A DNA stretch of 64,000 nucleotides, from contig OZ374560.1 of the NCBI GenBank assembly GCA_977862235.1, forward strand, positions 1,302,001-1,366,000, written 5' to 3'. Below, in pieces: positions 16,111 to 40,504 of this stretch. Positions within the stretch are counted from its first letter, which is position 1. The number at the start of each line of letters is the position of its first letter. The notes under the pieces were generated by a model, which was given only the letters and a program-made list of their open reading frames with translations, made no database searches and had not been told where the DNA came from. This DNA is from Dudresnaya verticillata (Eukaryota). Position numbers and translations under genes: made by a program.

Positions 16111-18180
16111 TCAGATAGCGTAATATTTGACTTCTTTGGAGATTGTGGAGGGGTCCTCAGTATCATCCGAGGGACCCCAACCATACCACCTAACTCGAAA
16201 CAAGAGAGCCCCTTCATCATTCCGATGGACGAAAAACCTGTCGAAGATATAATCATCTCCGTGAAAGGGAGCGGCGCTCTTCTCGGAAAATGGCGGAGGG
16301 GGAGGAGGGAGTTGTTGGTATGGACGTTTGGGACCGGGCGAACCGCCGAGGGTCGCGTTCCTGCTGGACTCCGTGGTAGTGATGTAGGGGTGCGGGTCTC
16401 GGAGCCGGGTTGCCGTTGAAGGCGGGCGCTGCGACGTAGCGGTGCGTTCCGAGCACTGAGTGCGCAAGGCTCTGCGTCGAGGAGCGCGGTGCGGTCGCCG
16501 TGTTTGGCGTTGTTGTGATCGGGTGACGCGTCGCATCGTCGTCCGAAAACGTTTGGGGGAGCGACCGCGTGATTCTCGAGGGCGCAGTAGGCGCGTTGTA
16601 GGAAGCCGGTGGCGGCGCGGTGCGACCCATTGCCGTCTCAGCGCCGGCCATACCAGGTGCGGTCACCTCACTGTACGGGCAGCATACAGCGGCATCTCCG
16701 AGATAGGAGTTATTTTGGGCGAGGCTATTTTCAGCTGCGAGATTTGGAGTCGTGGCGCCATGGTGCCGTGTGCTTCGCGCGCGGGTTGGAACGCCTTACA
16801 GGCGGCAGCAAAGCGCTTACAGGTGCAGGCTCCGGTTGGACAGCAGGACCTGCAGTGTGCGACACGCGCGTGCGTGTCTGCATTGCTGCGGGTCAAATAC
16901 CCTTACAGGCGGGGGCGCCGGGTTTTAGAGGCTCACGAGAGTCCTTGCCGATATATCGAACCCCACCAGCGTGCGCGAGTTCAAACAAATTGGGCGGTAA
17001 CTCTCTGCGTGCTGTGGCGCCCGTGGCGACGCGGGTGTCTGACTCCTGGGTGAAGTGTAGGTCGACAGACTTGGCAAGCGCCAGCAATCGCGGTTTGGGT
17101 ACCACGGGGGATGAGGTCGGTGCCGGGCGAGGGAACGCTGGCAACAGCGATGCTGAACGCATGCGATGCGAGTGGGCGCGCGTGTTCACTCCTGGAGGGG
17201 GCGGGGAAAACCGAACGCGACGCCTTCGTGGCGCCTACGCAAAGGTGCGTGTGGGGCAACCAAGATGCACGAGTCAGTTCGCGAGTTGGTATATCTCTAT
17301 CTGGTAGTATGAAAGGGCGTGCATCTGGCTGCGAGTCGCCTTGCGGGGTTGGCACCGAATCAGATCCCAGGATGGAGGGGCCTGCCCTCTAGCTGATGGG
17401 GACGGTCGGCAGATCGCGCAACTGCGCCTGTGAGGGCGAGGCTGAGCGCGGGTTTCGCGCGGTGTCTCCATCCGGGGCTTCAGTCCCTCGCACCGTATGT
17501 GGAGAATGAGCTGCTCGTACACGTCGTGTAAGCTGCCATTCTCAAATATGGGAGCGGTTACAGGCGCCACGGGTAGGCTGGCTGGCGCCAGTCTCCGGTA
17601 GGTCAGCAAGTCCGTGCGCAACCGCATTGAGTACTCCACCCATGGAGTGAGTTTTCGGCTCTGGCGGCAGGGTGCTATCTTTAATTGCAGTATCGTAATC
17701 GGGTGGTGGGGAAGAGCCAATTGCAGCCTGGCGTGTGGGAGGGCGCGCGCCGACGAGGCGATCTCAAGTGACTCGCTCGCAGTCATTTCCGTTTTGACTG
17801 AAGACCGTTTCAGGTTCGAGGAGATGAAGCGATATGGCCCGGTGGCAACTGGCGATAGTTTGTGGCGAGTCGTGGTTCCCGGGTTGACGGAGCCCTTGCG
17901 GAAAAATTCAAAGCTGCCTGGTGGGTGGTTGGAATTCTCCGACTGAATTCTGCTGTCGAAATTCGCTTTGTGACGTGTTTGGCTCTTTCGCATCTCGGAA
18001 GTGGCAGTGCTCATAAGCCTGCGCAACCATCCTAGCCATGTAGGGTAGTAGTGCGTGATACCCACTGCTTCTATTTGAGGTTCGGCCTGTGGCGGTAAAG
18101 CTCGCGGCGGACTTGACAACACCAGATCAAAAGAAGCGCACTTGGTTGACGAGTGGACCTGCGCGTTATTCGCGTAAGTC
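16111..18180 (-). pseudogene. Degenerate Ty3/Gypsy (chromovirus) integrase C-terminus plus chromodomain
   Basis: TYANNAQVHSST..SFDLVLS and SQTRHKANFD...KLSPVATGPY (GPY module) precede the chromodomain YIFDRF...LFRVRWYGWGPSDDT at 16111-16256. A purine-rich PPT candidate lies near 16051-16068. Confidence 0.8.
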
Positions 18181-18189
18181 CACTGGTCA

Positions 18190-20185
18190 GTGACATCGGC
18201 CGAGAAAAATTATTCGGCCACTGGGCGCGAGTGTTTGTCTGTGGTGTGGGCCATTACATCATTACGGCCATATGTTGAAGGTACCAAGTTCACAGTCCGT
18301 ACGGACCATGATGCCCTCCGTTGGTTGATGTCGCTCACTGATTCGTCTGGCCGTCTTACAAGATGGAGATTACGTCTGGCCGAGTTCGACTTTGTGATTG
18401 AGTATAAACCGGGCCGTAAGAACCAAGTACCCGATGCCTTGTCCCGCTTGGTGGACCCGCAAGAGCGCGGAGATGCACGGCCAATAGATGATACTGTACC
18501 TGTATTGGATGGTACCCCCTCTATTCTCACGACCACGCGGGCCCGGAGAAATCGAGAAACTAATATGGCCGACAGGAGGGAAAGAGACGATGGAGTCGAC
18601 GCATGGGAAGAGGAACATTTGATGGCCGATTATACGGACTATGGACGAGCGGAAGTCTTCAGTCGTGCACAAATGGAAGGGAAGACAGCAGAGACTCTTC
18701 CAACACCAATAACACAGACTGAAATAATAGAAGGCCAGAAAAACGATGACTTCTGCCAGACCATTCTCGCCACGCGAGCTGGCCTGGGACGACCCAAGAA
18801 ACCTCTCTTCTTCGAAGGGGACGATGGGGTCCTCTGCAGACGTTGTCCAACAGATGGCCAGAAACAAATAGTGCTTCCAGCCTCGCTACATGGCCGCATT
18901 CTTCGGTTGTGTCACCATACCGTTCCGGCAGGTCACCCTGGCCAGAATCGAATGTATCAGACTCTTCGACGGACATACTATTGGCCGCACATGGCCGTTG
19001 ATTGCTTAGCAACAGTGCGAAACTGTGGCCATTGCGCGAAGAACTGGATCCGTCGTCTCCGACATACATCGAATTTACAGCTGTTCCCGGCCAGTCAACC
19101 ATTAGAGAGTGTGGCCATGGATCTTCTCGGGCCGCTCCCCAGGACTAAGAAGGGGTTCGAGCACATATTAGTCATTACATGCCGCTTCTCGAAGCTGACT
19201 CAGGTGGTGCCGTTGACAAAGATAACCGCCTATAATGTGGGCACGGCGTTCTGCGTTCACTGGATTTTCAAGTATGGCGCACCAAAGACAGTTCTTACCG
19301 ATAACGGAGGGCAGTTTGCGGCCAAGTTCTTCCAGGCAGTCTGCCGGCAATTACAGGTGGCCAACATCTTCACGACAACATATCATCCACAAACAAATGG
19401 CCAGGTGGAAAGGTACAATCGAACACTGGCCGCGATGCTTAGGAGCTACGTGAATGAACATCAGACTGACTGGGATGAGTACGCTGCGGCATTGACGTAT
19501 GCTTATAATTGCCATATACATCGCTCCACTGGAACCACGCCGTTTGACTTGGTTCTCAGTCGGCCGCCGAGCCCATTCTCACTTGAGGCTACGTTAAACC
19601 GGCCAAAGCCAACAGGGACTGTGAAAGAAGCGTTCTTGCGCCGATTATCAGAGGCCGTGGATAAAGCTTCGGCCAGTTTAACTCGCACACAAGCGCGCTA
19701 CAAGAAGGACTTCGACCGCTCGGTTAGAACGGGGAATAAGATGCTGGCCGCTGGGGGGTTTGTCTTTCTGGACAACCCAGAAAAGCAGCCAAAGAAACTA
19801 GAGCACCACGCCCAGGGGCCATAAAAAATTATAAGCAATGATGGCCGTACGTTCGTCATCGACAGAGCTGGCCAACTAGAGCGTGTTAACTCGGACCGAG
19901 TAGTAGCCGCGCCCAGGCCACAGGGGCAACCGATGGCTACGGAGACATTGGCCAGTGCCGCATTGGGAACCCTCCCTGAAGGAGTTGCTGCGTCGGCCGA
20001 GGAATATGTCATTGACACTCACGGATATGCGCGAGGATTCGACTGGCCAGCGGTGGTTTCAGGTCAAGTGGTATGGGTATAATGGCCGAACATGGGAACC
20101 CGAGGCTCTTCTGCCAGCCACGTTGGTGTCCCGCTTCTTCGCGCGCATGAAGCGCCGAGCTACGCCGGGCCAAAACAGTTCGTAA
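18190..20185 (+). pseudogene. E1 pol 3' half: RNase H, integrase, chromodomain
   Basis: AEKNYS..RECL, TDHDAL.W, RLTRWRLRL, HHCC zinc finger (H..H..YYWP..C..C), MDLLGP, TDNGGQF and HPQTNGQVERYN. The GPY motif is hit by a TAA at 19822. The chromodomain FQVKWYGYNGRTWEPE follows a frameshift. Confidence 0.93.
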
Positions 20186-20985: not shown

Positions 20986-23900
20986 CTAACAACAACTCAT
21001 TGGCCAGCATAAGAGCACAAGACGAGCTGGCCAACTACTAATCCAACACTTTAACAACCAACGACCATAAGGACTTGGTGAGCGAGGAGAACCCGGAGCG
21101 CAGGGCTCTCTGCTCCTTGACTGCGAAGGCGCACGAGGCGCTGTCGCGGGAGCTCGTGGGGCTGTTGCAGGAACGGTTGGCGGCGTCACAAAAGGCGAAG
21201 TGGCCGGCAGAGATAAGCTACCAGGGACATGGCCAGGCTGAGCAACATTGGCCACAGGAGTCGGCGGGGCCGACACAGTCGGACGAGTTGCCTCTGGTTG
21301 ATAATCGGCCGGACGAGACGGCGCGCGCGGATGGCCAGAGATATCTCCAGCATGAGATGGCGTGGGGGTTGTGGCCGGTGCCACTGAAACCCCGGGATAT
21401 TGCGGCATAGTCGGCGCAGGCGTAGGCAAGGAAGAAAGAGGAAACTGAGGCATCTGGCCAAAGACAGGGGGCGCATAAGCTGCGCGCAAACTGGCCAGCT
21501 GATGAAATCCACGATTGCGCTCCATGTCAAGTAAGGCCTGTTGATTATGCGTCTCGTCGCACCAGCGATCGCGCTGCTTCTTCCACTCAAGACCCTGCTC
21601 GTTAGATCTGGCCAGCGACTCCTTTGTGGCCTGCAACTCGGCCTCGACCTGATCTTTCTGTCTTCTAACATTGGCCAGCCGCTCTTCGCCCCGTCTGATC
21701 ACCTCTTCCACTTCATCAACATGACGCCGAAGGCGGTTGAGTTCGTCGGTCTGGCCACGCTTTGTGTCGCTGAGGCGACCAAGGCTCTGATTCAGCTGCC
21801 GCAAAATATTGGCCAAAGACATTTGGTTAACATGGCCGCGCACAGAAAATTCGGCCACCACATGCGGATGAGGATGCAAGAGGTTGGCCCGCACAATGGA
21901 AGCGTCGTTGGCCACTTCAACTCCAAAGCTACTTCCATGCCGAAAAGTCACTTGCCTGTTCCAGTCGAAACCGCAATACTTCTCATCATGGCCAGCCCTG
22001 CGTTGAAACAAATGGTCCCGGTGCCGCACTGTGTCGGCCAACTTCTCATACAACGACACAACATCTGGCCAATACACATGATTGAACTGATGATGATGCT
22101 CCTGGCTGACGGGGAGGTAGGTAAGATCTTTCACCACTTCAACTCGTCGAGCAATGGCCTGAGAAGACATCCACCACATTCTCTTCGACGCTTGCGCTTC
22201 GTAGCGGAAGAAGATGCTGGCCATTATGTGCAACTCTATGACAGCGGTTTCTTGGAAGCACTCAACCCAAGTGGGGTCGAGCGCATGACGACGATACTGG
22301 CCAACAAAATAATAGGCCAGAGGGCTAAGTAGACAAGCCTCTCCCCTCGATGGCCACTCCTTCCAAACAAAAGCGGGAACGCTAGGGAAGTATTCGACCG
22401 AGGGCCAAAACCCTTCCTGGCCACGAGTGTTGCCGTGGTAGACATAGCAACCACCCGTGCGATGCGCCAACCAATCTCCCGGCGCTATGATGCGACGAAG
22501 GTCTGTACTGGCCATTTTCGCGTTTCGCACGGTCGTCTAATCCCAGCGCTCAAGCATCCACGAGTGAGGGAAGGCGTAATACCATGTGGAAGTATGAGGG
22601 TACACATTAGAATTACCCTTGAACATCAGCCAAGCCCCGTGAACGAACATCACGTCCTGCGCGCACAACAAGAAGGCACGGTCGCACTCAATCTCCAGAG
22701 GGATCCAATAGAGATGGCCATTATCATGCGACTCGCGATATTGATGCCACGCCTCGTTGAGAGGGCGATGGCTTTCCCGCACGCGAATCATGTCCAGCTT
22801 ATCACTATTGGCCACCAACTCCGTATAAGTAATATCCACTCGAGGACGCGTTGGCCAGATGGAAGTCTCGGGCAATCGCTCATCCAAAACTAACTCGGGG
22901 CCATCATGATCTTCTAGGCCCGGTGGGAGGTCGGAACGGAAAGGTACAGCAGCACGAGTGTGCGAAGCTGGTTCACAGTCCGGATGCGTTGGAGCAGAGG
23001 GGCCAGCACTTGAACTTGGGATATCCTGGCCAGCTTTGGAAATATCCAAAGTTTCTTCGCGTGGTATAACTTCCTTCACGCGAGGATCTTCACTCTGGCC
23101 AGATGACTTAGGCGGCGCGCCTGCAGATGGCGTGGAAGGAGACTGGCCAGTTTTGAGCTCATCGGCGTCGGGGAGCAAAGCCACAAATCGACGACGATCG
23201 CCGTCTTACATGAGATTGGCCGGTGGAATAGGGGTAGAAGCACCGACGTCAACAACTTCGTTGCGAGATACCTGGCCAACTTCCTTCGGGGGCAGCCGCT
23301 GCTTCTTCGAAGGAGGCCCCTGAACAGCGGGCTTGCCGATGTTCAACTTGGCCAACTCACGCGCACGACTAGCGGCCGTCGGCATGAAAGGTGAAGGCGC
23401 CGAGCGCAGTCGTGGCGTGGATTTCCTCGAAGCACTCGGAGTGGCCGAACGTGATGACTTGCGTGGCACGGGAATATTGGCCAAAGCTTCTGCGGCCTTC
23501 TGCCCCAACTTATCTCCTTTCTTCTGCTCTGGCCCAACCTTCTCAACTCTTCCAGGTAACTCCTGCTTGCTGGCCAGTGGTTCTTCTCGAGCGGGCACAA
23601 ATACCATGGCCGAATCGGAAACCTCGGGCCGAGCCGCATCTACTTCTTCGGCTGCCGCCGCGGTAGCTTGCGTAAACAATGGACGGGAGATGACAATGAC
23701 GGCCTTCTCAATAGCGCTGACCAACGGTGGCGGAGTGGGATTAATGGCCGTTTGCACTGAAGTGCTTGCGGCCGGCATCAACTTCTTCGCCTCGAGGCGC
23801 TTCACTTCGGCCTGCACCAACCCTTTCTCAGGGGCTTCTGCTACCTTCTGGCCAGTTGCTCTCGCCTCTTTCGCTGACGGGCCAACAACAGAAGATGCAG

Positions 23901-24449
23901 TCGACTTACCCTTTCCAAGTTGGCCTGCTGCCGCCGCCGCCTCCTCTGACGAAGATGATGCGACGATGGTTACGCTGCGCACTACCTTGGCCTTCTGCAC
24001 ATCAGCAAGTTTCTTCTTTAGGTCGGCCAGTTGTTGCTCTTCAGCTTCGCGCCTCTTCTGACTGGCCGCTATCTCCTGCATCAGTTTGTCAGTGCCAACG
24101 TCGGGCGTAGCGGGCACCATGGGCGGAGTAGCGGAGGCAGCAACACTCTTCTTCTGGCCAGTCTTGATGGGCTTTTCCGCTGCGGTAGTGGCTGCAGCAA
24201 CTGGCGGATCGGAGGGCTTGCCACTTGGGGTTTGGGTGCTGGGGCGGAAGATGCCCTGGGCGCCTTCATCGCACGCGGCCTTGAACTCTGGCCAGTCTTC
24301 TTCGCGGTAGCCTTCACTCTGGCCACAGCGACTTCTTCGTCGCTCGACGGCGGTGTAGAAGATGAGCTGGAAGAAACGGTCGGCCGTACAGTCTTCTTCT
24401 TGGCCGATGCGGTGCGACGCGGGCGCGCTTTCGCAGGACCACCCGCCAT
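20986..24449 (-). pseudogene. E1 antisense extra ORF (~1150 codons), unknown function
   Basis: ORFs 23206-24753, 22537-23184 and 20986-22530 share one frame and are separated by single stops (TAA 23206-23208, TAG 22537-22539). The likely start is MAGGPAKARP (ATG 24449) in another frame. It has an NLS-like PPSKKQRL, a globular domain, a coiled coil and a Pro-rich tail. Confidence 0.7.
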
Positions 24450-24685
24450 CGAGAGTGAACTGGCCAGACGCGCACGTGGAGACCGAAGCAAGGGGCGGCG
24501 CGCGCACGTTGGAAGGAAGTGAGGACGTGCGCGCGATGTGTTGGCAAGTGTTGGTAAGAGGAAGTGTGGTGTGGCAAGATGGTGATGGCCGCATGCAGGG
24601 AGAGGGGTAGCGGCGCGGATCACGCGTGCTGATATGGCCAGATGAAACCCTCGCGGCCAGGAGTCCGCGCTTGCGAAGGGGGCTC

Positions 24686-25449
24686 TGTGGTGCAACGGCA
24701 AGGGGGCCGCCGAAAGGAAGCAACTCGACGGGCCAACTGTACGATCGGCCCAACCAAACGAAGACACTTGGCCAATGAAGTTGAGTCGTCGGCGCGCGGA
24801 CGGCGGTGAGCGCTCGCCAGTATGAAACGTGGCCACCGACTGTACACGTGGCTCACACGTGGCCACCTACGACACCGAAGCGCACCACGTTGCCCGTTGT
24901 ACACGTATGATCCGGATCGTGGCTAGATGCAAATGGAAATTGGATTTGGCCGCAAGGTGAATCAAAGGGAAGACAGTGGAAAAATCAAGGGAAAATCTAA
25001 CTCATTTGGCCAACCACTAACGAACAAGTACTTGGTTTAGTCTGGTAAGGGTACAGCATTGGCCCGACGCCGGAACAAAAGTAGATATTTATGGCCGACC
25101 TGGGTAACCTCGGCCACTAACTGTAGAATAGCTCTAGATTAGCTCAGATGGCCGATTTTGGGCCTACTTAGCTGGCCACACACTACGGCTAAGCCGAAAA
25201 AGGTACGAAGCCGTCCCGCCAGAGGTTGGGAGTAAAGTTAATAACTGAACCCCCAACTTGGCCATTTTCTGTCCTCATCACAGATTCTGGCCACGACTTC
25301 GTCTGCGCGCTCCCGCTCTACCACGCTTGCTACCGGCGTGCAGGTCCCTTCTACGTTCTGGCCAGTTTTGGTCAAATCCGACAGGTCTTTGTGGTCTTCT
25401 TGGGGTCTCGTTTGGCTGCCGTACGCGGTGGTGCTCTAGAGATACTACA
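24686..25449 (+). repeat. E1 3' LTR (~764 bp)
   Basis: Starts TGTGG after the PPT and ends TACTACA, matching the termini of the other LTRs in the window. It contains CACGTG boxes. The partner LTR is not seen. Confidence 0.75.
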
Positions 25450-26172
25450 CGGAGTACCGACCGGCATTGAGTAGGAAACCTCGAAGTTCTTGTGGTCATC
25501 AGGTACTTGCGGATACTTCCCGTTATACCACTCCGGCTTGATAGCCGTCACCTCTTGGCAATGGCAAGGGATGAGACACCCTGTCTTGTGGCGTTGCTTC
25601 CGCTCGAAGCGGGAATGCCCTAACGGCATAGCCGTCTGGGGGTTATCCAGAGCGTATTTTAAGTTGGATGACTCATCCCACCGCACCACGCGGGCCATTG
25701 TATACGGGAAGTTATCCCTCCCCTTCCGAATGAGTGGACGCTCATGCATAACGAGTCGAAGGTCCCACTCGCCACCCTGGTGAATCTCATACAAAAGGGC
25801 GGCCTGCGAAGTTAACTTCTGCGTCAGCGCATTGCTGCACGCAATCTCATGCCGGAAGCGCACATAGGCAAGATCCCATTGCAGGGGGTCTGCGTCGCCA
25901 TCAAGGCGCGGGAGGAACCGGTTGGTACCGGTCAAGATGCCAACGCGCGTGCGCATGAGACGATTCCAAACACGGCTTTGAGCCATCCCCCCGATGCGGC
26001 GAACCTCCTCGCGACTAGCTCCCGCCCGCATCTTCAGATGTGTGAGGTCGGTACGCAGGAGCCAGTCGCGGCTGTGGGAGATCGCTATCGGCACGCCAGC
26101 CGCATCCACCTCATGTCCCAAGAAATTGACACTAGAGCCTGCGGCTCCATACGCCAAGTGTGGCGGCGCCAT
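25450..26172 (-). pseudogene. E3 antisense ORF, homolog of the E2 antisense ORF, truncated by E1 insertion
   Basis: Collinear with 29203-30390 (LGHEVD.AGVPI, SRDWL.RTDL.HLK, WDLAYVRFRHE, RPLIRKGRDN.PYT, RWDES.NLKYALDN, QRHKT.CLIPCHCQEV). Similarity stops at MPVGTP, exactly at the E1 LTR end. Confidence 0.85.
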
Positions 26173-26855
26173 CCCGATATAGTATGCGAGAATGCCAACG
26201 GCTTAGAAGTCGTTTCCGAATAGAGTCTTCTAAGGTTCGGAGACCTTTCTCTTAGTTCGCGTCGGCTCCAGAACTGACCCTGAGGGGTAGTGAGCGCGAC
26301 CTGATTACTCCTACGGCGCGGAAGCCGTTCTTCTGCCTGAACGTCGGCTCCAGAGCCAAGTCCAGCGACTGGCGAGCACGACCTGAGAAAACGGCTGTCA
26401 GCCGGGAAGAGCGGGGCGCGCACGGCGGAGGTCGTAGGGCTCAACGCAGGGCGCCGGTGGGCAACGGGAAAACCGCAGATGATGAAATCGCTCAAGCGGG
26501 ACGGATGCAGCGAGCAGAAGCCGGGCGGTTGGGTGAAGCGCTACGGCTGTTGGTGGGTGTGGGCACCGAAAGGGAAAAGATGGCTGCAAGCCAGCGTTGA
26601 AATATTCGTGCGCCCGTCTGGCGTTTCGCGCAATCGATACCGGTCGAGACGACGCCGACGGCTCAAGCCGTGCACACGGTGACCTGGAGCCTCATCGAGA
26701 CGGGGCGCTGGGAGGCGTTTGCAAAACGTTCTCGCTGGGCCAATGAACGGACCACCGGATCTCAATCTCAATCTCAAACGGCTATAGCCTTTGGAAACAG
26801 CATCGCTGTACAGCTCCTTACTGAGCGCGGTCGCTCAGTTTTAAGAAGGGGGCCG

Positions 26856-27816
26856 TGTGGTATAACGAGCGCTGGGGCGCTGTAAGGAGCCACGTGTACA
26901 CGCGACGCCTGTAAGGCGTGGGATACAGGAGTGAGATGGCTGCTCGCCATTGGACAATTAACTACGTGAGCACTAGGCGCGCTGAGTGGTGGATACGCGC
27001 CATGATGGCACGTCTATTTTGGGCGTGGCGCCTTACAATGTGTGGCAGTATGGACGCTGTCAGCAGAAGGGCTTACAGAAGCGCACTTCTTTTCGCGGGA
27101 CAGACTGTCCCTTAATCAGGACAGCTGTCCTTTCATCGCTGTACACGTGTATATACGTGTATACACGTGGACTTACAGCTATACACGTGGCGTACACATG
27201 GCAGGGTAATGACGCCAGTTGGACACCTCGTATTGGCAGATTTATGACGCGCCGCTGCGCTCCTACTCACGGACGAGGAGCACCTCTGCGCTCAGGGTAT
27301 CGACAGTGCAGCCGGGACCTCGGCTTGCGCACCGGCGCATCCGCCACCAAGTCCCCTAACTGGAATGTATTCCCACTTTTGACTTGTACTGACTGTACTA
27401 ACCTTTGTATCTATAATCATAGACTAACTTAGACCCCCTTTTGGGCTGATAGACTTTTCGGCTGTCAAGCCTACTTATAGGCGCCGGAATAGCCGGCGCC
27501 CTCAGAATAAACACTCAGCGGAGTTGTTCGGGAAGTTTCCACCTTTTGGTCGCTCGGACGCTCCGCGCCTGCAGGGGTCGCCCAGTACAGGCCCGGAAAT
27601 CGTACGACAAGTACTCTACGAAAAACCGGGTCGCAACCTCTATACGTTCCTTCAGTCGGTCGCGCCGAGTCTTTACCGTGCTTCCGCACCCCCCCTTTCG
27701 GGTCATCAGGGCCCGCCTTTTTCCAAGCCTCTACCCAACCTCCCTCGAGCTACCACCAATTAGCGTGTGATATCGGACAGCTGTCTCTTCTTGTTCTTTG
27801 CTGTTTCTGGCCGGTG
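26856..27816 (+). repeat. E3 3' LTR (~974 bp including 41134-41146), split by E2
   Basis: TG start after the PPT, 5' end similar to the E2 LTR (TGTGG.ATAA.GAGCGC...GCGCTGTAAG), and a CA end at 41146. Confidence 0.85.
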
Positions 27817-28440
27817 TGTAGTAGAATGGCCCTTGGCCAGGTAGTCGGCGATAAAACGGCGCGACAGCTGTCCTGGGGACACACACTCACGGTGGGCGGT
27901 AGCTCAAAGGAAAAGGGAAAAAGGGGGTGGTAGAGACTTGTAGTGGGTGTAATACCCAGAAACAAAGAAAAGGGAAGGCGAACCCTACAGCGTAGAGCAA
28001 TCGTCGTACACGATAGGGCTTGTAGACGCCCAAGGCAAGGGAAACACGGTGGCACCGTAGGAAGACCAGAAAATGGGTACAGCCCAAAGTACACACCGCT
28101 GGCGGTTTAGTGCTGGGCCCCTGCTACTCAGGGGCCCATTAAATACGGCGGGAAGCCGGAAATGCTACCCACTCTAAGCTAGAGTTATAATACTGACAGT
28201 TACCTACTACTGTACACTAAGTGGTGGATTACAATCCAATGATAGGAATGAGTGGTAGTACCACTACGAGGTACAGGCGCGCTGCTGTCTGGCGCGCAAT
28301 GCCAAAAATATGGGTGACCAGGATTAATCAACCAATGATAATCAGCCATCTCAGCCATCGTGCCCTCGGGCGCCTCACGCCTTACAGGCGTCATCTGTAC
28401 ACGTGTGTGCTTACAGCGCTCGGGCGCTCATTATTCCACA
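27817..28440 (-). repeat. E2 3' LTR
   Basis: Direct repeat of 40505-41128 with 5 substitutions seen by eye. Confidence 0.97.
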
Positions 28441-28458
28441 CGGCCCCCTTCTTAAAAC
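28441..28458 (-). promoter_or_regulatory. E2 polypurine tract
   Basis: The minus strand reads GTTTTAAGAAGGGGGCCG immediately before the LTR TG. Confidence 0.85.
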
Positions 28459-28967
28459 TGAGCGACCCCGCTCAGTACAGCAATGCTGTTTCCAACGGTT
28501 CCGACCGTTGAGATCTGAAATCTCGTCGAAAAGATTGGCCCAGCCAAGCGCGGTATTTCTGGCTTTCTAGAAGCATCCACGAACGGTCGTCGGCGCCTGC
28601 GCCAGATCAGCCCGGCGACAGCCGTCGTCGGTGGCTCGCCTTTGGCGCCACGACTGGTATCGACAACGCGACACGGCAGACGGGGCGTCTATTTCAAACT
28701 CGGCGCAGAGCCGACTGTGCCCCTTTCGCACTCTCGGTCACCCACCGACTCGACCGCAACCTCCACACTTCCGATACCCTGCCCTCTTCCGCCATCACTC
28801 TTCCGCCCTTCTTCACCCTAGACTCTTCGCGACGACTCGCGTCGTGTTCGGGCGCGTCTTTCTGCCGTGCTGCGCAGCGCGCGGGAGCGTTTCTCCTTTG
28901 TCTCGTGGCAAAAACGTTTGCGTCGAAGACTGGCCTCGTGTCGCCCATAAGCATCGCTCGAGCGATT

Positions 28968-29128
28968 CAGGCCGCGCTCGCCTTTCTTAGGATCGGCTTT
29001 GGAGCCGACGCATTTCAAGGAAGGCCTCCGCGCCTTAGAAGTATTTTCAGGTCGCGCTCGCCTTTCTGACGATCGGCTTTGGAGCCGACGGTCATACCGA
29101 AGACAAGGCCTCCGTGCCTTAGAAGAAT
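28968..29128. repeat. 80-bp tandem duplication with hairpins, upstream of the antisense ORF
   Basis: Two copies of CAGG(C/T)CGCGCTCGCCTTTCT...GATCGGCTTTGGAGCCGACG...AAGGCCTCCG(C/T)GCCTTAGAAG. A homologous pair is at 26226-26386. Confidence 0.85.
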
Positions 29129-29202
29129 AACTGGGGCGCTCCCATTTTGCAAAGCCTTCAACTCGAGACGTCTCGCGACGTGGGGTTCGCATCGTCACAG
29201 CG

Positions 29203-30390
29203 ATGACCAACTTGGGTCTCGTCTATGGAGAGGCTGGCTCTAGCGCCAGCGTTCTTGGCCATGAAGTCGACTCGGCGGGTGTGCCGATTGTCATTAAGCG
29301 CAGTCGCGACTGGTTGGTACGCACCGACTTGGCGCACCTCAAAACCCGAGCTGGGGCTGGTCGTGAGGACATCCAACGACGCGGGAGTCGTGGTGCTCAG
29401 AGTCGTATGTGGAACAGCGTCAGCCGTGCTCGAGTGGACATGTTGACCGGGACCAACCGACTCGTTCCCGGTCTGCTGGGTGAGGCGTCTTGCTACTTTT
29501 GGGACCTCGCATACGTGCGATTCAGGCATGAGGTGTTCTTCACGAACTGTATCGCCGGGAAGCTGAACTACCAGCTGGGGGCGATGCGGGAAATCCACTC
29601 GAGTGGAAAGTGGGACCTGCGCATGGTTAGCCATGCCCGCCCCCTTATTCGCAAGGGGCGGGATAACTATCCATATACGCTAGCTCGCATCGTCCGGTGG
29701 GACGAGTCCACCAACCTCAAGTATGCGCTTGACAACTCGCAGACGGCCAAGCCGTTGGCTTATTCTCGCTTTGAGCGACGTCAACGCCACAAGACTGCAT
29801 GCCTCATCCCTTGTCATTGCCAAGAGGTGGTTGCCATCAAATCAGAGTATTACAGGGCTAAGTACCCTCAAGTGCCCGACGACCACGCGTCGTATGAGGT
29901 CTCATATTCAATGCCAGTGGGTACCCCCACCATCGTGGCTTACTTTGGCCTGAACATGATGGCGCGAGCCATGGATGAGAGCGTACTCTGGACCCTTTTT
30001 CGTCACGAGTGGATCGTCTTGGTCGTGCAGACTCTCGTCTATGAGGCCCGTCATGGGATGCTGTATTTCATCAACCAGCCCCTTCGCGCTGCCATCAAGG
30101 AGATGGGTATCGACAATCTGTCGGCGGACGCCGATGACGCACAGGACTTGAAGGCCCTTTTGGTCTTCATAGACCGCATTCGGTGGAGCCGAATCTCCAA
30201 ACGGAATCGTCATCTCCCGGAGAACACCGGTCATCTCACTCCTGTATATGACCGAGGACATTGGGTGGACTTTGACCTAGAAGATTGGCATCCGGTGTTG
30301 CCGGACTTCTTGATTCAGCCTGAGCCGACAGAGGAGAGACCCCTGGTCTTGGATGAGGGAACCCGCATCACCGGTATGACTCACGGGTAG
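29203..30390 (+). CDS. E2 antisense extra ORF, conserved domain of unknown function (395 aa)
   Basis: Open ORF antisense to pol, conserved at protein level with the E3 homolog despite many synonymous-looking differences. Confidence 0.8.
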   Translation: MTNLGLVYGEAGSSASVLGHEVDSAGVPIVIKRSRDWLVRTDLAHLKTRAGAGREDIQRRGSRGAQSRMWNSVSRARVDMLTGTNRLVPGLLGEASCYFWDLAYVRFRHEVFFTNCIAGKLNYQLGAMREIHSSGKWDLRMVSHARPLIRKGRDNYPYTLARIVRWDESTNLKYALDNSQTAKPLAYSRFERRQRHKTACLIPCHCQEVVAIKSEYYRAKYPQVPDDHASYEVSYSMPVGTPTIVAYFGLNMMARAMDESVLWTLFRHEWIVLVVQTLVYEARHGMLYFINQPLRAAIKEMGIDNLSADADDAQDLKALLVFIDRIRWSRISKRNRHLPENTGHLTPVYDRGHWVDFDLEDWHPVLPDFLIQPEPTEERPLVLDEGTRITGMTHG

Positions 30391-31482
30391 GTGAGCGCCA
30401 GTTGGCAGGACCCCGGTTCGGAGACTCCAGGTGACGTCCCGTCATTCGACGACACTGTCGATGGTCAGTCTCAAGGTTCGTACGCGACGGCATCAACTGG
30501 CCATGGTAAGGCCAACCACATCTTCCGTGACGTTTTCAACAAACGGGGTTTGGCTATCCACCTCGCGGTGCATTGGGAACTACGGAATCTCACCGTTAAC
30601 AGCCTCGCCGACTGGGTCGAGGAGGTGATGGTGGACTATGAGTCCAATTGGATGAGGACTCCGGGTCCTGTGGAGCGTTCGGAGAAACTTCGTACCCATT
30701 TGTCAAGGCTCCCACCCTTGAAGGGATACCCCGATGATGTTGACATCATCAAACCGCGTTTGGGCGTTGGCCATTCTGCTACGCCGCGAGTGAAGAGGGA
30801 ATCGGCCAAGGTCGATAGTTTGGATCCGCGCGCAATGACAGGTGGTGACACCTCGGTGGTTCCTCGCGAAGAGTCAGCTGTGGCGCCTTCGGCCAGTCAT
30901 GGAGCGGCCATTTCCCACTCGGCTCCCAAGCCGATGAATACAGCGGGCGCCTCATCATCGACGATGGCGCCGGCTGCTCCTACGATGCACATGTCTGGCT
31001 TCGTCGCTACTGGCGAGTTTTTCAACACGATCTCTCCCAAAGATGATTCTCGGGGCCAGCCCGATGCTAGTCGTTCTAAGGGCGACTCCTTGGTGGTTAA
31101 ACCAAGTGGCACCGGCCAAGAGAGCGAGAAGCCTGCGGATGTCGAGACTGGGCCTTCGCCCACTGTTGGCGAGTCCAACGTAACACCTCAAGACGACGTT
31201 GTCGTGAAGACTGAGCTCGTCGTGAAGGAAGAAGACGAAGTAGCCCCTCTCGTACAGGGCATCCAGACCGATGGCGTTGATGCCATGGAAGTGGACCAGC
31301 CAACGGCCAGTCGCCGTGCGTTAAACGAGTTAGAGGGGAGTCGGCGCGGTCGTGGTCTGCGTCGCGGAGGGGAAAGCCGTCACGTCGTGCGCGAGGTGCG
31401 ACGTGTCGTCGTATCTCACTCGGCACCCAAGCCGAATCCTCCGTTGGGTGAGGATGAGGTTATTGACCTGTTATCGGATTAG
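30391..31482 (+). CDS. In-frame continuation of the E2 antisense ORF after a single TAG; low complexity, ends in a SIM-like motif
   Basis: Starts in frame immediately after the TAG at 30388-30390, stays open for 363 codons and ends GEDEVIDLLSD. Confidence 0.6.
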   Translation: MSASWQDPGSETPGDVPSFDDTVDGQSQGSYATASTGHGKANHIFRDVFNKRGLAIHLAVHWELRNLTVNSLADWVEEVMVDYESNWMRTPGPVERSEKLRTHLSRLPPLKGYPDDVDIIKPRLGVGHSATPRVKRESAKVDSLDPRAMTGGDTSVVPREESAVAPSASHGAAISHSAPKPMNTAGASSSTMAPAAPTMHMSGFVATGEFFNTISPKDDSRGQPDASRSKGDSLVVKPSGTGQESEKPADVETGPSPTVGESNVTPQDDVVVKTELVVKEEDEVAPLVQGIQTDGVDAMEVDQPTASRRALNELEGSRRGRGLRRGGESRHVVREVRRVVVSHSAPKPNPPLGEDEVIDLLSD

Positions 31483-32684
31483 CCGAAATTGTCCTTCTTC
31501 GAGTAATGGCTCGTGAGCCACGTAATTCGCCACACTTGGGCAAGAGCGGCTTATCCGCTGAAGTAAAGTGACTTGTTGTTGTTTGTGTCACTTCGGTACG
31601 CCGATTTCCATAAGTAGAGCCAACCACTGAGGGGGCCCTCATTAACACGCCTCTGCGACTAGGCTCCGAAGGAGCCCCCGTCGACGTTCGTCGAGTGACT
31701 TCCTTTAACTCAAGGCCGTCGCGCCCTTTTCTTTTCTAGGTCCTTCACTCGGAGAGGGAGTCGCGTGCACATGCGCGGTAGACTCCTCAAGGGAGTTGGT
31801 GGCGAGAGCTGAGGGTGCCGGGGCAGTGCCCCGTGGATTGTGGTGCCAAACGATTATGATTCGTTAGTCAATCCGCCTCCCTTGGCGCTTCGCCAAATCA
31901 GTTATTGCCAGCAATGATAGAGGCGACTCTACAGTAGACAAAAACATACTGTAGAGCTACGTTCTTGTTGGCGCCAACCGATGTAGGGACTCTTCAGCCA
32001 TAGCTGATTTGCGGGTCAATTCGCCTCTATGGCGTCTGGAGCAACACACCGTCCTTTCCCTCAAGAAGGTCGTTAACATCCCCTAGTCGTCGTCGACGAG
32101 GGGGCTTATGCCACATCTGCGGCCGTCAGGTCACCGTTATGGTGAAGCGACTCCTCCATGGTAGTAAGCCTCACCCGCGACGGCCTCGTAATGGCGACAA
32201 AGTTATGGTAACTCTGCTAGGGCAGACGAGTGTAGTTTCGTGGATTCCCGTCACGATTATTGCCGTGGTGGAGGTGTCCAACATGAGGGCAGATCCTCAC
32301 TCCTGGATTTCAATCCATAAGTGGCTGGAGCCTATCCCCATAGCTTAATTACCATATTGGCATAAGGCTTCCTTCCTACCGGTGGTAGTATTTCTTTCTA
32401 TACATGTGAGCGTTGGCTCCAGTCTTATTATTACAGGGTTCTACCCATGTCCAGGTTTCCCTTGATCTCATCTATTCCAGGTCTTGAACCTTCTGTACAT
32501 CTATCCACATCTATCCATGTCTTCTATCCATATCTTGAATCTCCATTCATCTATCCATATCTTCTAACCAAACCAAGGTATCAACCTTTTCTTCACCAGC
32601 ATACGTGTTCCACGTTTCATATAATGACAGCTTCCACAAGCAACCCAACCCTCGCTGCAGGAGATTGACTCCTCCTTTTCCATG

Positions 32685-35600
32685 CTAAGCCGACAGTCTC
32701 TTTCTGTAGAGCTGTAGGGCTGTGTTTTCCCGAGACTCCACGTCTTCGTCTATCGACGAAGCCACTGCGTCGGCAGTTACACCTGGAAGGGGGATCTTCC
32801 TGGAACGGTGATACCGTTTGACCAAATTGTCAGGGAGGTGATCCCTTGGTTCCCAGGTGTCTTGCGACGCTGGGCATTGGAACCACCTGATACGATACTT
32901 TTGGGTATCGGCGTCATAGTCGACGATTTTGTCATACACGAACTCACGTGGGGGTGCTTTCTTATAGCGTGAAAACTTACGGCGAGGCGCCGTCACATCA
33001 TCCTCAATCGCCGGCATTGCCGTGGGAGCGGCAGGCGGATTTGACTTCTGTAAGAGTTGTGGGGTGTTACCGCCTTGAGACAGGGAAACAGATACCTCTG
33101 TATGGGGGTTGTTAGGAGAAACCGGGCCCACGGTGCTATCGATATTGTCAGTGTTTCCAATTAATGGAGAGGGGACAGTCGTCGCATTTGCGGGTCCCAC
33201 GGCCTCTCTTGAGCGTTCCTCATCTTGCGCTCTTCGCGCCTCTTCAGTGGAAGGTTCATCGGTGGGCTCTGGCCCAGAAGGTGGTTGCAGATGGTTTCCA
33301 GCTTCTGGTGCTTCACCAACTATCGCGGAGTCCTGTCCTAGAGCTCCGAGTTCTTCGTCTGGCGAGGGCGCCAATGTCACGCGGTCCAACGAGATTGACT
33401 CTCGCTCCCCCTTGACTTCAAGCACGACGGTGTGCGTTCCTCTCTCGAGGACCTTATAAGGCCCCAGAGCCTTTGGGAAAAGCTTTCCTTCTCGCGCTAC
33501 GCCTCTAGCGTCTTTCATCTTAGTTTCTCTTTCAAGAAAGACCCATTGTCCAGGGCGTATCTTCTGATTGCTCAGACGCATGCGGTTGTTGAAGTTAGCT
33601 TCGTAGCGACGTTGCGCTAATTTTAGCCGAGGCAACGCTGTATCCATCAGCTTCTCAAGTCTAGCGGTCAGCCGCTTCTTGACATTAGTCGCAGATACGT
33701 TAGCTACGTCGACCGTTTCAGCTTTCTCCATGAGGATGGAAGTAGGTGGATTGGATAGAACCAAATCAACGGGCGCGAATCCCGTAGCACGATGAACGGT
33801 CGTATTATACGCATACGTTAGTGCCGACGTGAACTCGTCCCAATCTTTTTGATCATCTGCGGTGAAGTGTCTCAACCCTACTAGAAGGGTGCGGTTGAAC
33901 CTTTCGGTCTGAGCATTGGTCTGCGGATGATATGTAGAGGTGAACATATTCCGAATACGGAGGATGTCGCAGACGGCAATAAAGAACTTCGAAGCAAACT
34001 GCGATCCATTGTCGGACAAGACGTAACGGGGTGGCCCGTAGATATACACCCAGTGTTCGCAGAACGCCCTCGCTACCGTATAAGCCGTTACCGTCTTCAA
34101 CGGGACTACCCGTGTAAGTTTCGAGAAACGATCGGTGATGACGAGAAGATACTCGTTCCCCTTGCTTGATCGCGGAAGCGGGCCCAAGATATCGATTCCT
34201 AGGAATTCGAGCGGCATAGTAGCCGGAAATAACTTCATGTGCGAAGTATGTTTACTCAACTGGACTCGTTCCATCGCGCACTTGACACAGTTACGCACTG
34301 TCGAGTAAACGGCAAGGGCCATGTCTGGCCAATACACTTGCCTTCTCAAGTTGTGGTACATCCGTGTGCCACCAGGATGGCCAGCCATATCCGGGTAGTG
34401 TGCAAGATGTAGGACTCTCTCCTGAAGAACTCTAGGTATGACTACCTGTAAAGCTCGGTCAATGTAAGACCTTCGGACTAGGAGTCCGCGTTCGTCTTCC
34501 AGATAACATCCCGGTTTTCCCGCTTCGATGGCTAATCGGATACCCTTACAGAATTCGTCTGTTCGTTGGGCGCGAAGAAGTTCCTCTATTGTGAGGAGTG
34601 AAAGACTCTTCTCGTCCATTTCCTTTTCAGCCACGTTAGCTATCAATTGCTCGTCCTCGAGACCCGACTCGAACGAATTGTCTTCGGGTTCCATCTCCCA
34701 TTCTTCCAGAGGTCGCGACCTGGTGTTGGCTCGCGATGTTTCCTTCGCCGAAGGGTCAGGGGGATCTTCCCCATCGCTATCAGCGATTATGAAGCAGGGG
34801 ATCTCGAGATCCGGTTCCCACTTAGTAAACCCATAGGTAGGTAAACGTGAGACAGCGTCAGCAATCTGATTTTTCTTTCCCTTACGGTATTGGACCGTGA
34901 AGTCATGCTCTAAGAGACGCAAGCGCCATCGTGCTAGACGTCCGGACGCGTCCGTCATGCTCATCATCCATTTGAGAGCCTGATGGTCGGTGTAGAGGTC
35001 GAAATGAGACCTTTCCAAATATGGTCTGAGCATTTGGGTAGCCCAGACTACAGCGAGGCATTCCTTCTCGCCGACGGAGTAATTCCGTTCTGCTGGTGTT
35101 AGGCCCCGACTCCAAAAGCCAATAGGGTGTCGAGTCCCGTCGGGTTCCATTTGCATTAGGGCGCACCCTATTTGGTAGTCACACGCGTCGGTATCGACCG
35201 AGAGGGGTCTGTCTTCCTTAGGAAGTCGGAGTATTGGCGGCGCGATGAGGGCTTTCTTCAGTAAAGCGAAAGCTTCGCGTTGCCGTTCATCGAATGGAGG
35301 TAATTCGAAATCAACGTCCTTCTGTAGGAGCCTATTGAGCGGAGACGCTACGCGTGCAAAGTTCGGTACGAAACGTCTATAGACGTTGCATAGCCCAATG
35401 AACGACCGTAGTTGCGTTTGCGTCGTAGGTTCCTTGAAGCCTTCGATGGCTTGTGTATTCTTGGTAGCTACCTCCAGGAGACCAGGTCGGATCACGTGTC
35501 TGAGGTAATCCACGCTTTTTGTGAAGAAATTACACTTCTTCAACTTGAGCGACACACCCGCTTCCTTCAACACAGAGAGGATCTCTTGAACGTGACCTAA

Positions 35601-37364
35601 GTGTTCGGTGACACTCTTAGAGAATGACTATGATGTCGTCCAAGTAGACGAGACAAGACTTCCATCGGAATCCCGATAATAAAATGTCAACTGTTCGTTG
35701 AAACGTTGCTGGTGCGTTGCACAGACCGAATGGCATTCGGCAGAACTGAAAGCAACCTGCATGACAGGTAAAAGCTGTCTTTGGCTTATCCTCCGCCGCG
35801 ACTGGTATCTGCCAGTACCCTGAATTGCAATCAAGGGTTGTAAAATATTGGGCGTCGCCCAACGAGTCTAAGCACTCGTCCATTCGCGGGAGAGGGTAAG
35901 AATCCTTGATGGTTATCGCGTCAAGCTTTCTGTAATCAACGCAGAAACGGAGTGATCCGTCCGGCTTCTTCACTAGTACCACTGGACTTGCGAACTCAGA
36001 GCGCGCTGGCTCTATGACCCCTTCCTTCAACATCTTGTCGACTTCATCTTGCTCCGCTTGTCGCGCCTTCGGTCCAGACCGATATGGTTGTGCAAATACG
36101 GGTTTTGCCCCGTCAGTGAGATCGATTCGATGCTCCGTGACCTTTATGGTCCCGAGCTTCCCGTTCCACATATCTGCGAAGGGTCGCAACATCTTGCGCA
36201 CGAGACGTCTTTCAGACGTAGAGAGGTGTTCCAGGGCTAAGTCATCGACTGTTAGCTTCTCAGCGGCGGTTGTAACGCCCGGTTTGGGATTGGTCGCGCC
36301 AAGAGCAGCAGCCAGCCCTGCCCCCCTACATCGAAGGATGTCTCCGTTTGAGGATTCGTGTCCTTTTGTTGTGAGACTGTATCCTCGGAGACGTCGTCGA
36401 TGGAAACCGAATATACAGGCGTGGCCGTGGGATCTGGAACTGCGCGACCAATCACTTGGTGTTTGTTCAACCGCTGTGTGCGGGAAGAAAAGTTGGCAAC
36501 CTTGACCCGGAAGAGAACATTCTCTTGGAGTTTGACGATGCCATTCGTGATGATCACTTGTTGACGGTCGTATAGACGTTGGAACGAATCTAGGAAGTGC
36601 GTTCCTTTGGCCGTGCACGTGACGGCGACCCAGGTTTCTGAGCCTGGTAGTAAGTTAGTTGTTTGGGCAACTCTCACGAGTCGCGAGTTAGGTAGGGGAG
36701 GGACCTCCATGGGCTCGCCAGAGCTCGTGGCTCTCGGGATACCGCACCGACGCCGTAGAATCGGTTGTACCGAGCCGTCCCGTAGCGCGATGGTTTGTTT
36801 GCGTACACGCAACGCCTCGACATGGGTATCGATAAAGGTACAGCCTAAGATCATATCAACGGCTAATGCCTTGACTACGACGAACGGTTTTCGTACCGTG
36901 TAGGAGCCAATTCTGACGGCCAGGGAGATCATTCCCATAGTTGTTAAGCGGTGACTTGACGCGGACGTCAAATTCACGATCGATCGGGTCGAAGATATCT
37001 TCTTCCGTTCTTCCAAAGAGAGCACGTCGGCTCGGATGAGGTTTGGGCCCGCCACAGTGTCCAAGACTGAGAGCACTTGAGTAAGTTTCTCAACAGAAGT
37101 CCCCACGGACGCGACAACTTTATAGTTGTATCTCGAAAGAGAGCAAACTGGGTCCTTAACATACTCATGATACTTATACCCGGGAGGTAGGCCCACAGGG
37201 CGTTCTAAAATCTTCTTTGGAAGAGAAGGCGGGGTTTCCCGCGACACCGATCGGTTGGTAGAGGAGAAGCTTAAGAAGTCACATTCCTCTGAACGATCGG
37301 GGGGCTCCGATACGACTGGGGTTGCCCAGTGAACCGAAACCGGTTCCCCCCTAGCTAGTTTTTC
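32685..37364 (-). pseudogene. E2 pol (protease, RT, RNase H, integrase, chromodomain) with two frameshifts
   Basis: LDT(V)AGPN protease, LRFCVDYR, MPFGLCNAPATFQ, YLDD, DTDAC, TDHQAL, HHCC, IDILGP, SDNGSQF, GPY and chromodomain YRIRW...DTWEP. Frameshifts occur near 36322 and 35624. Confidence 0.95.
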
Positions 37365-40065
37365 ACCCTGCTAGCAGGCGACCGCGGAAGCGGTGGAGGC
37401 GGCGGAAGGGTTCGCGACCCTGGTCTTGGCGAGCGTGGCGCCGCCGGTGGGTGTCTGGGAGTGGCAACCGGGTGATTAAGTCCCGCTTGAAATTGGACAT
37501 GTCCGTTCCTGCCTGGGGTTGACCCCAAATTTTGATGCGTGCCTGGCGGCGGCCCACCGGCCCGACCTGACGATGCGTAGTCGCGGTGGTCCCCACGGAT
37601 ATCTCCGTTTGCGAACTCGGGTAGGCGCCTTATGGTGGCTAACCATGTCTTCTGCTCGCGCGACAAGTGATAAAACTGTCGGCGTTTTAGCGCCTCAAAT
37701 GACGGTTCATCCGTGCGAGCCAGATATGGGCAATTCGGTTTCTTGTGGCCCACGCCATAGCACTCGAAACAAATGTCATTGCGTGCATCTTCGACTGTTA
37801 CCCACCCAGGACGCTGAGTCCTTGTTGGTTGCGCCCATCCAGGCAATCGGTGGTTGTAGTTCTGTAGAAATGCTTCCACTTCACCATAGTATGGTTGGTT
37901 ACTGGGTGCCCCAGACCATGAGTCTGATTGGGTTACCGTGGATGGAGGCGCTTCGTTGTCGATGGCAGCTACCACAGCGTCCTCGCTATCCGCGTCAGAG
38001 CTACTGCTCTTTGATGAATCGGAATCCGAGGACATCTGCTTCTTATTCTGGCGAATGAGAAGAGCTCGTCCAGACTTGTGCGTCTTCACCCTGGAGAGGG
38101 TTTTCCGGGGTAGCGTTGAGCTCACCTTCTTGGAGCGTCACCACCCACAAGGGCTCGGTGGGAATCTCCCTGAGCCGTTGCGAGCTCAACGTAGTCTGCT
38201 AGTCGCGCCGTGCGAGGGTCCAGTGATGACGTACTCAAAAGCGGTTTGACCGCAGGTAGTAACCCTCGTATAAAACGTGTAATCAGGTCTTCCTCTGAGT
38301 AAACACCTGCGACCTTTCGCGCTTTGTTCTGCAAACGTCTTGAAAACGTAACCTCCTCCTCATCAGACTCCTGAATCATCGTGTCCATCTCCGAAGAAAT
38401 CTTCTCGATGTAGACGTCCTTTGCGTAAGTCCGCAGGAGGTAATTAATGGCTTCCGGCCACTCATTGAAACCCCCATTGTCGTCACCTGCGGCATCGAAA
38501 TTGGCTTCGAACATGTCCTTAGCGTCTTTTTCCAAGACCTCTGGGATAACCAGAATGGCAGCGCCTTCACTGACTTGGGCTTGATCCAACTGTCGTTTCA
38601 ACGTGGCCAGAAAGCCAATTATGGAAACTGGGTCACTCCCATCAAAGCGGCGACTCCTCATCACGGATTTAACCCGTTTAATCTTCTTGGAAGTGGCTTC
38701 CGTTACTTCCGGTCCTCGATATGAATCGACATTCAACAACCGATAGCGTCGGTACGAAAGAACCTGTACAAAGGCAGGGTTTCGTGGAGTCAACTCCTTG
38801 AGTCCCGTCCGACGTGGGCCTCTCCAAGAGCTCCATGACGGTCGGGAAAGACCTCGCGAGGTGGGTTCATCTTCATCCGAGTGGTTCAGAGCGGGGTAGG
38901 AATTGCTTCGGCGTTGATCTTCAGCCTTGCGGCTGGAGTACCGGTCTTGGCGTGAATCAATCCGGCTGCGGCACACGTTGGGACCGTGCGTCGCCCGGCA
39001 ATCACACCGAGGGTGTTCCGTCCTCTCACGACCAAAGTCGTCATTTCCAGACTCCCCTCCCGAGTCACGTCGCGGAGACGTCTTGCGACGGTCCCTGGTG
39101 CCTCGAGGCACAGGGGAGCGTCGTCGTTCGACTTCAGGGATTAAGTCCCTTTCACGATTAAGTTGCCTCATCTTTGCTTCTAGCAACGCGACCTTCCGTC
39201 TCTCTCCATCGAGATCTTTGCGTAAAAGCTCGATGGCTCGATCTTGTTCGACACACCTTTTGTCGTCCACGTTCCGTTGAACGTTTTGTATAGCCATTAC
39301 GGCCTCTGTCCTTGTTAGGTCTATAACCTTGTTGAGTGCATGTAGTTCCTCGTGGACGGTATCCAATTGGTCCCCGAGGGAATCCACTTGCGCCTGCAGG
39401 GTTTCGACCCTTTCTTCGTCTAATCCTCTGGGAGGACCTGGTTGACCTCGAGGTTCAATCTCTTGTTGACACCTCGCCAGGAGGCGGTCATCACGGCGCG
39501 CGGATGCCTCGTCAATGTACCTCTTGACCTTTAGAAAGGTATCATCGGCTTGGCTTTCCAACAGTGCCACGACGCTCATCGTCAAGGATCTCTCGATGCC
39601 TAATTCGACCATTCGTCCAATCTCACGCTCCGTGAAGCAGCGGATCTCAGACGAATGATACTTCGTTCGCATTGGCAACCCTTCGTCCGAAGTTGCCGGA
39701 GTTTCTTCTTCCTGGGCTCGTCCGCCCATAGCTTGAACACTGGCTAACGCCAGGGACGGCGGCATCATTATACGGCCTGGACCTTCGTTCTCCCCGTTGT
39801 CAGCGGGGGCTTCTCCAACGGTTCGGACCGTATTTTCTCCGTCAGGGACCTGATCCGTACCAGGGCCAGGTGGTTCTTCTTCAGCTGGGACGCCGGTCGT
39901 TTGGGGCGGCGATCTCAGCTCCTCCGTTGCCGGATTGTTTGCAAGAGCGGTTACGACCGCACGGGTGCGGGCGCCTACTGTCCGTACAGAGGCAAGACTG
40001 CCTGTACGACTCGCGCCTCGGCTAGATAAGCCGGGGCGCGTTGTATCGCCATTAGATGTAGGCAT
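37355..40065 (-). pseudogene. E2 gag with a CCHC zinc knuckle; one frameshift at ~38125
   Basis: Capsid-like region (FDGSDP...W.EAINYLLRTY...FIRGL) and CFECYGVGHKKPNC. Two ORFs overlap at 38122-38125. Confidence 0.9.
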
Positions 40066-40503: not shown

Positions 40504-40504
40504 C

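Follow-up and report, generated by a model that had tools for sequence, protein, structure and literature searches.

Among cis-acting RNA signals of retroelements, the MPMV CTE and the avian direct repeats occupy a 3′ position. The musD MTE and the IAP RTE are RNA transport elements of retrotransposons (PMC5767303, PMC12786077), and in Cer1 an element-encoded accessory protein, CERV, serves export of the genomic RNA (PMC10309623); for plant LTR elements, cis-acting export signals are described in PMC12786077 as not directly studied. What antisense ORFs and 3′ repeats do in Ty3/gypsy elements is presented as an open question (PMC7264820, PMC11963269), a Rev-like role having been proposed for these ORFs in both papers, and in Grande a promoter is placed upstream of the antisense gene (PMC7264820).

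Here we describe a two-hairpin motif that occurs in four copies within a 64,000-nucleotide stretch of contig OZ374560.1 (hereafter the window), two copies each in the Ty3/chromovirus-type LTR retrotransposons E2 and E3. The motif is real and, to all appearance, undescribed; it would belong to a known kind of object, the cis-acting RNA elements found in LTR retroelements. No description of it emerged from literature covered at the level of titles and abstract starts, and algal repeat libraries could hold such elements. With its 76 nt, its covarying fold and its place beside an orphan protein that is predicted to be well folded, the motif makes the antisense-ORF question testable by RNA, binding and reporter assays.

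Results

E2 (27817–41128, − strand) is a full-length Ty3/chromovirus-type LTR retrotransposon. Its LTRs are about 624 bp long with 5 mismatches, have TG...CA ends and are accompanied by the target duplication CGGTG, the 3′ LTR lying at 27817–28440 (−) with an adjoining polypurine tract at about 28444–28453. Pfam domains comprise gag, RT, RNase H, integrase and chromodomain, in the RT–RNase H–integrase order of a Ty3/gypsy chromovirus; gag-pol extends over five ORFs, and a gag CCHC knuckle is found near 37771. Of the distantly related E3, which is older, a 3′ fragment is present on the + strand; it comprises an antisense ORF, its leader, a polypurine tract and an LTR (tract and 3′ LTR start at 26843–26920, + strand, LTR from 26856). 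E2 appears to have inserted within the E3 LTR, of which the other part would lie at about 41134–41587. A pol fragment at 17823–19983, 43% identical to E2 pol, is at most a candidate part of E3, since E3 is broken near 25450 by another sequence that starts like an LTR. The sole pol relative with a named organism among the 120 listed comes from a red alga (40% identity), which, together with the presence of long intron-free ORFs, points weakly to an algal host.

Several further features accompany these elements. The sequence at 20986–25450 (−), with its LTR-like TGTAGT start, interrupts the E3 antisense ORF and carries ORFs of 548, 222 and 516 codons that are partly coiled-coil and unrelated to the antisense family. 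Directly ahead of the polypurine tract, both elements hold a conserved inverted repeat, ACTGAGCG...CGCTCAGT (26820–26841 and 28456–28477). The division of E2 gag-pol into five ORFs (32685–40308, −) occurs despite near-identical LTRs (5 differences), with assembly indels, programmed frameshifts and mobilisation in trans as candidate causes. At 17808–19983 lies an RNase H–integrase fragment (+), opposed at 17808–18206 by a short stretch of integrase in the reverse orientation, which suggests a local inversion. Elsewhere in the window lie a hAT transposase with poly-Q (49853–53962, +), a DDE_1 endonuclease fragment (11513–12148, +) and two long uninterrupted divergent ORFs for an LRR-like protein (59710–62424, −) and an NAD(P)H-binding protein (62417–63460, +), this pair being accompanied by a 23-nt tandem repeat at 62177–62336; a tRNA scan of the window returned none.

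On the genomic-RNA strand the 76-nt motif unit consists, from 5′ to 3′, of CTYCT, a stem P1 with a 6-nt loop, a variable linker, a bulged hairpin P2a/P2b/P3 and CTGA. The E3 array spans 26227–26386 (+), with copy E3A at 26227–26304 and copy E3B at 26308–26386, and the E2 array spans 28967–29125 (−), with copy E2A at 29047–29125 and copy E2B, which carries the sole U–G pair (in P2a), at 28967–29041. An earlier sequence-only reading of this DNA had placed four copies in E2 and E3, and all four are found at those positions, together with the hairpin-1 strings that it gave, the GTCGGCTCCA block with which it had hairpin 2 begin and the GAGCRCGRCCTGA block downstream. The copies are tandem, as it held, but the period, given there as 80–81, measures 80–84 and varies with the anchor, because of indels among copies. 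A covariance model built from the four copies retrieves these alone from the 64 kb, at 75–100 bits against 12.9 for the next match in the window, a match that for the four copies holds by construction since the model was made from them. Pattern scans for further copies gave 0 matches in prokaryote genomes, 0 in viral contigs (32 with a looser pattern) and 16 in metagenomes, the latter all lacking hairpin 1. The covariance model, run over these 48 loci, gave 13 matches of at most 18.3 bits, which we take as chance, and no related loci were found with pol or the antisense protein as query.

Across the four copies, 40 of 80 aligned columns are invariant, with pairwise identities of 66–84% (67–73% between E2 and E3 copies), while 52 of the 79 four-fold degenerate sites of the adjacent antisense ORF differ between E2 and E3, which is near saturation. 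Because half of the motif columns stay fixed next to sites that have diverged this far, purifying selection, as read from the alignment, is what holds the motif. Invariance comes in blocks: it embraces 15 of 16 bases in stems P2a/P2b and 4 of 6 in loop 1, but 0 of 14 linker columns and 1 of 13 in the apical part, and this distribution leads to a reading of sequence-specific recognition combined with scaffolding. Certain features are specific to the copy position and common to E2 and E3, which suggests that the duplication is older than the split between the two elements.

The consensus fold predicted by RNAalifold comprises P1, of 5 bp with a 6-nt loop, followed by one long hairpin made up of P2a (4 bp), a one-base bulge, P2b (4 bp), a 4-nt CARA bulge, P3 (3 bp) and a variable top. 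The covarying stem proposed for hairpin 1 holds up, all 5 pairs of P1 being kept in all 4 copies with 2 compensatory pairs; over the whole fold, 16/16 pairs are kept in 4/4 copies, of which 4 are compensatory and one is U–G. On these four related copies, on which all covariation and structure statistics given here rest, pair conservation as high was reached in 2 of 500 shuffles (slid controls, 27–44% paired), and the consensus energy is −20.6 against about −9.5 for shuffled columns. When the structure was re-predicted for every column shuffle, none of 600 was as low in energy in either of two shuffle modes, and at least 4 compensatory pairs were reached in 27/600 and 9/600. Three of the 4 compensatory pairs stem from a single copy, E3A, and P2a/P2b contain none. 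Selection and covariation thus back the claim of a conserved structured RNA element, although they do not pick among export, packaging and translation control, the roles with which that claim had been made.

Folding of single copies gives a weaker picture, with z values of +0.3 to −2.1 relative to shuffles, a P1 probability in context of at most 0.11 on either strand, and E2 copies that are not predicted in the shared fold, which on the genomic strand lies 4.5–9 kcal/mol above their minimum. Tertiary contacts or a protein would thus be required for the shared fold, unless E2 switches between two forms. The same weak folding, and the single U–G as the only mark of RNA-type pairing, would fit conservation at the DNA level (promoter-proximal sites, or a single-stranded DNA hairpin in reverse transcription) or a functionless remnant; four double changes nevertheless keep their pairs, and neutral retention is excluded because four-fold sites are near saturation, so that we consider a DNA-level or neutral origin of the conservation very unlikely.

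The short hairpin 2 of the sequence-only reading fared less evenly. It shows 0 compensatory pairs and one broken pair per E3 copy, yet dominates both E2 ensembles (0.96–0.98); the covarying alternative is the long bulged hairpin, which fits all four copies and which, on the genomic strand, is better than the short form by 7–10 kcal/mol in E3. The complementarity between loop 1 and CTCC, likewise pointed out there, does exist, with 4 pairs in three copies and 3 in E3B, but covariation is lacking: three of the pairs never vary, the fourth is the one broken in E3B, and the bases involved are also needed by stem P2b. Loop 1 might kiss the CTCC of the other copy or of another molecule and so start dimerisation of the genomic RNA, perhaps through a switch between long and short hairpin. 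The complementary bases in all copies and the predominance of the short hairpin in E2, from which E3 is one mismatch away, speak for such a contact. Set against it are the invariance of the pairs and the break in E3B, the competition with P2b and the energetic cost of the short fold in E3. A self-complementary loop for dimerisation is not conserved, 6-nt palindromes being absent from both E3 copies and those of E2 being no loops common to all copies. On balance kissing-loop dimerisation seems to us quite unlikely.

Other pairings were noted as well. The 5′ CTTCTAAG of E3A and an upstream complement could form an 8-bp stem at 26200–26235, of which E2 keeps just 4 pairs, and in both elements loop 1 of the first copy could pair with CTYC of the second. 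A stem between the 5′ CTYCT and loop 1 of one and the same copy was dropped, the 1-nt connection probably being too short.

In the genomic RNA the motif is situated in the 3′ UTR, 467–526 nt ahead of the 3′ LTR region, and on the antisense strand it lies 53–74 nt ahead of the antisense start codon. The antisense ORF of E2 (29203–31482, +) has a conserved N-terminal domain, a low-complexity tail and an in-frame stop after codon 395; that of E3 (25438–26172, −), in which homology ends near 25438, encodes a protein 67% identical to it over 241 residues. When leaders are drawn from the TATA-like TATTTCAA to the start codon, a boundary picked after looking at the data, that of E2 (28698–29202, +) measures 505 nt and that of E3 (26173–26596, −) 424 nt, both being ATG-free and each holding both motif copies of its element. 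TATTTCAA itself, at 28690–28697 (+) in E2 and 26597–26604 (−) in E3, lies some 250 nt away from the 3′ LTR of either element, within a second block conserved between them (28650–28700 and 26595–26660). This block is likely the antisense promoter, of which TATTTCAA would be the putative TATA element. Of the 64 triplets, the E2 leader lacks ATG alone and the E3 leader ATG and one other, an absence of ATG that recurs in 4/1000 (E2) and 9/1000 (E3) mononucleotide shuffles and in 77/1000 and 95/1000 dinucleotide shuffles. The nearest upstream antisense ATGs are 720 nt (E2) and 523 nt (E3) away, and over the leader stretch the genomic strand contains 8 and 7 ATGs, respectively. With a leader free of ATG, a scanned antisense mRNA likely runs through the motif; given the 3′ UTR position on one strand and this leader on the other, both genomic and antisense RNA are likely to contain it. 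The proposed link between motif and antisense ORF is strengthened by the lack of ATG in both leaders, whereas the placement of that ORF just downstream is true on its own strand and reversed on the genomic strand, where it lies upstream.

The folding data are divided over the two strands. The sole one-sided stem change, in E2B, gives U–G on the genomic strand and C–A on the antisense strand. In a context of 310–325 nt the genomic strand is predicted to fold into the long hairpin in E3A and E3B alike (0.87–1.0), and P2 of E3A does not form on the antisense strand (0.06–0.07). Consensus folding of the antisense strand is nonetheless as good or better (−21.7; SCI of 0.78 vs 0.72 for the genomic strand), and the antisense shared fold is the minimum-energy fold of both isolated E3 copies. 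Loop 1 of the antisense strand reads Y-UCC-G-N, a pseudo-triloop pattern, in 4/4 copies (one with U–G), with a cross-loop pair possible in 4/4, a pyrimidine bulge in 3/4 and a G–C closing pair in 0/4; the closing pair is C–G in 3/4. Pseudo-triloops serve as protein sites and are disfavoured by C–G closing (PMC3884659).

These observations bear on a second reading, in which the motif would be an operator in the 5′ leader of the antisense mRNA: with both copies occupied by a protein, for which the antisense product is a candidate, scanning towards the start codon would be held back. The likely passage of a scanned mRNA through the motif, the equally good antisense consensus fold and the pseudo-triloop pattern in all copies, in line with the role of such loops as protein sites (PMC3884659), argue for it. 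An ATG-free leader is, however, no proof of a fold acting there, its boundary was chosen post hoc, P2a of E2B carries the C–A mismatch on this strand, and C–G closure of loop 1 in three copies disfavours a pseudo-triloop (PMC3884659). We regard the leader operator as possible but doubtful.

The antisense protein itself belongs to a family without names. An exhaustive protein search gave 127 relatives at E up to 0.001 and 49 at 1e-10, whereas a word-indexed protein search gave none and a profile search 1; none of 10 clusters looked up carries a name, and 0/34 aligned members match Pfam. No PDB sequence or Atlas match was obtained for the protein. Its structure model, which is confident (pLDDT 86, pTM 0.87) and mostly helical, comprises a helical domain of about 350 residues. 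No solved or viral structure matched this fold (best Z 3.0; none by Foldseek at E <0.001), a result that does not by itself establish a new fold. Conserved positions of the family include several basic residues (R77, R106, R192, R195) and aromatic residues, and we infer that the protein may bind RNA.

At gathering threshold, the Rfam 15 families gave 0 matches in the window, the best scores near the motif (10.5–15.5 bits) being far below the cut-offs. With pistol and hatchet ribozymes the motif shares a hairpin at the 5′ end, a long hairpin with interruptions after it, and a contact that loop 1 might make with an internal segment. The hatchet ribozyme needs a conserved 3-nt C-A-A linker (PMC6561176) and has a P1 of 3 or 6 bp (PMC6561176, PMC4604424), where the motif has a linker of 10–14 nt with 0/14 invariant positions and a P1 of 5 bp; its UGGG, GCAG and AAA segments face UCGG, GCRC and the lack of a conserved AAA. 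Pistol needs a pseudoknot of 6 bp that involves the P1 loop, and P3 and P2 joined by a 2-nt G-U junction (PMC6154101), against at most 4 bp (3 in E3B) and a 5-nt junction in the motif. Membership of both classes was rejected, as the motif lacks their conserved linkers, their junction lengths and their catalytic bases. The fluoride riboswitch (crcB, RF01734), whose 3′ end resembles the E3A–E3B junction, where GGAG could pair with CTYC of the next copy, was also rejected (10.5 bits vs a cut-off of 34, E 1.8, E3 only, conserved AAC linker missing), and HDV-like and flavivirus-type xrRNA readings, for which the resemblances are short and helices are missing, were dropped, as was a reading of TCAG|G on the antisense strand as a putative splice site.

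A self-cleaving ribozyme of an undescribed class would agree with the high invariance around the bulges, with a pseudoknot version of pistol-like helix order and with the tandem ribozymes known in other retroelements, the retrozymes (PMC4918200). The unmatched hatchet and pistol features and the lack of an Rfam ribozyme match weigh against it, and the ATG-free stretch continues upstream of the motif. Self-cleavage is further disfavoured because through it the genomic RNA would lose its 3′ LTR part, or the antisense mRNA its cap; of all readings this appears the least probable. Quite unlikely too, to our mind, is an xrRNA-like tertiary fold that blocks 5′–3′ exonucleases so that a short 3′ RNA remains, which could regulate the antisense leader by pairing with it. 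Tandem xrRNAs occur in viral 3′ UTRs, and the tandem copies, the size near 76 nt, the invariant 5′ strand by P1 and a possible pseudoknot are all in keeping with such a fold; the consensus fold, on the other hand, contains no three-way junction, Rfam gives no match, and none is reported in retrotransposons in the literature covered (titles and abstract starts).

Discussion

Our preferred, still tentative, explanation is that the motif acts within the genomic RNA, as a protein-bound response element of its 3′ UTR that serves export or packaging. Bulged helices that are invariant, scaffold stems free of sequence constraint and an exact duplication are in keeping with a protein-binding site. In outline, the 76-nt sequence, duplicated in each element and with base changes that leave the predicted two-hairpin fold intact, would adopt that fold on the genomic strand, presumably the working one. 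A protein would recognise CTYCT, the CGGA of the loop, P2a/P2b with the CARA bulge and CTGA, P1 and P3 would probably be scaffolds without sequence constraint, and the two copies would provide two binding sites. The ligand may be the antisense-encoded protein in a Rev-like role, the Gag zinc knuckle or a host export factor, and once bound it would promote export or packaging of the genomic RNA. Behind this genomic-strand response element we place the antisense-leader operator, then kissing-loop dimerisation and the exonuclease block at equal rank, then DNA-level or neutral conservation and, finally, the ribozyme.

A more specific proposal, unlikely as a whole, is that of an accessory cassette, in which an antisense gene for a protein of undescribed fold would come with its own duplicated RNA response element. 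By reading that element on the genomic strand the protein would export the RNA or shield it, the same DNA providing the leader of the gene's own mRNA. If true, such a cassette would represent a Rev/RRE-like system that arose independently, in what is probably a lineage of algae. Compared with Rev/RRE and Cer1 CERV, the antisense protein here is one without a Pfam, PDB or fold match, and its binding to the motif is conjectural.

In its position the motif matches RNA transport elements of LTR elements such as the musD MTE and the IAP RTE, from which it differs in being 76 nt long and duplicated, in overlapping an antisense leader and in lacking a sequence or Rfam match to them. Closest in layout are Retand/Tat elements, which likewise combine an antisense ORF with tandem repeats between pol and the 3′ LTR (PMC11963269). 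Retand/Tat elements, however, are non-chromoviruses with TRP28 domains and family-specific variable repeats, whereas E2 is a chromodomain element with an antisense protein of another family, and the motif, in contrast to those repeats, is present in exactly two copies per element, is conserved across families and has undergone compensatory changes.
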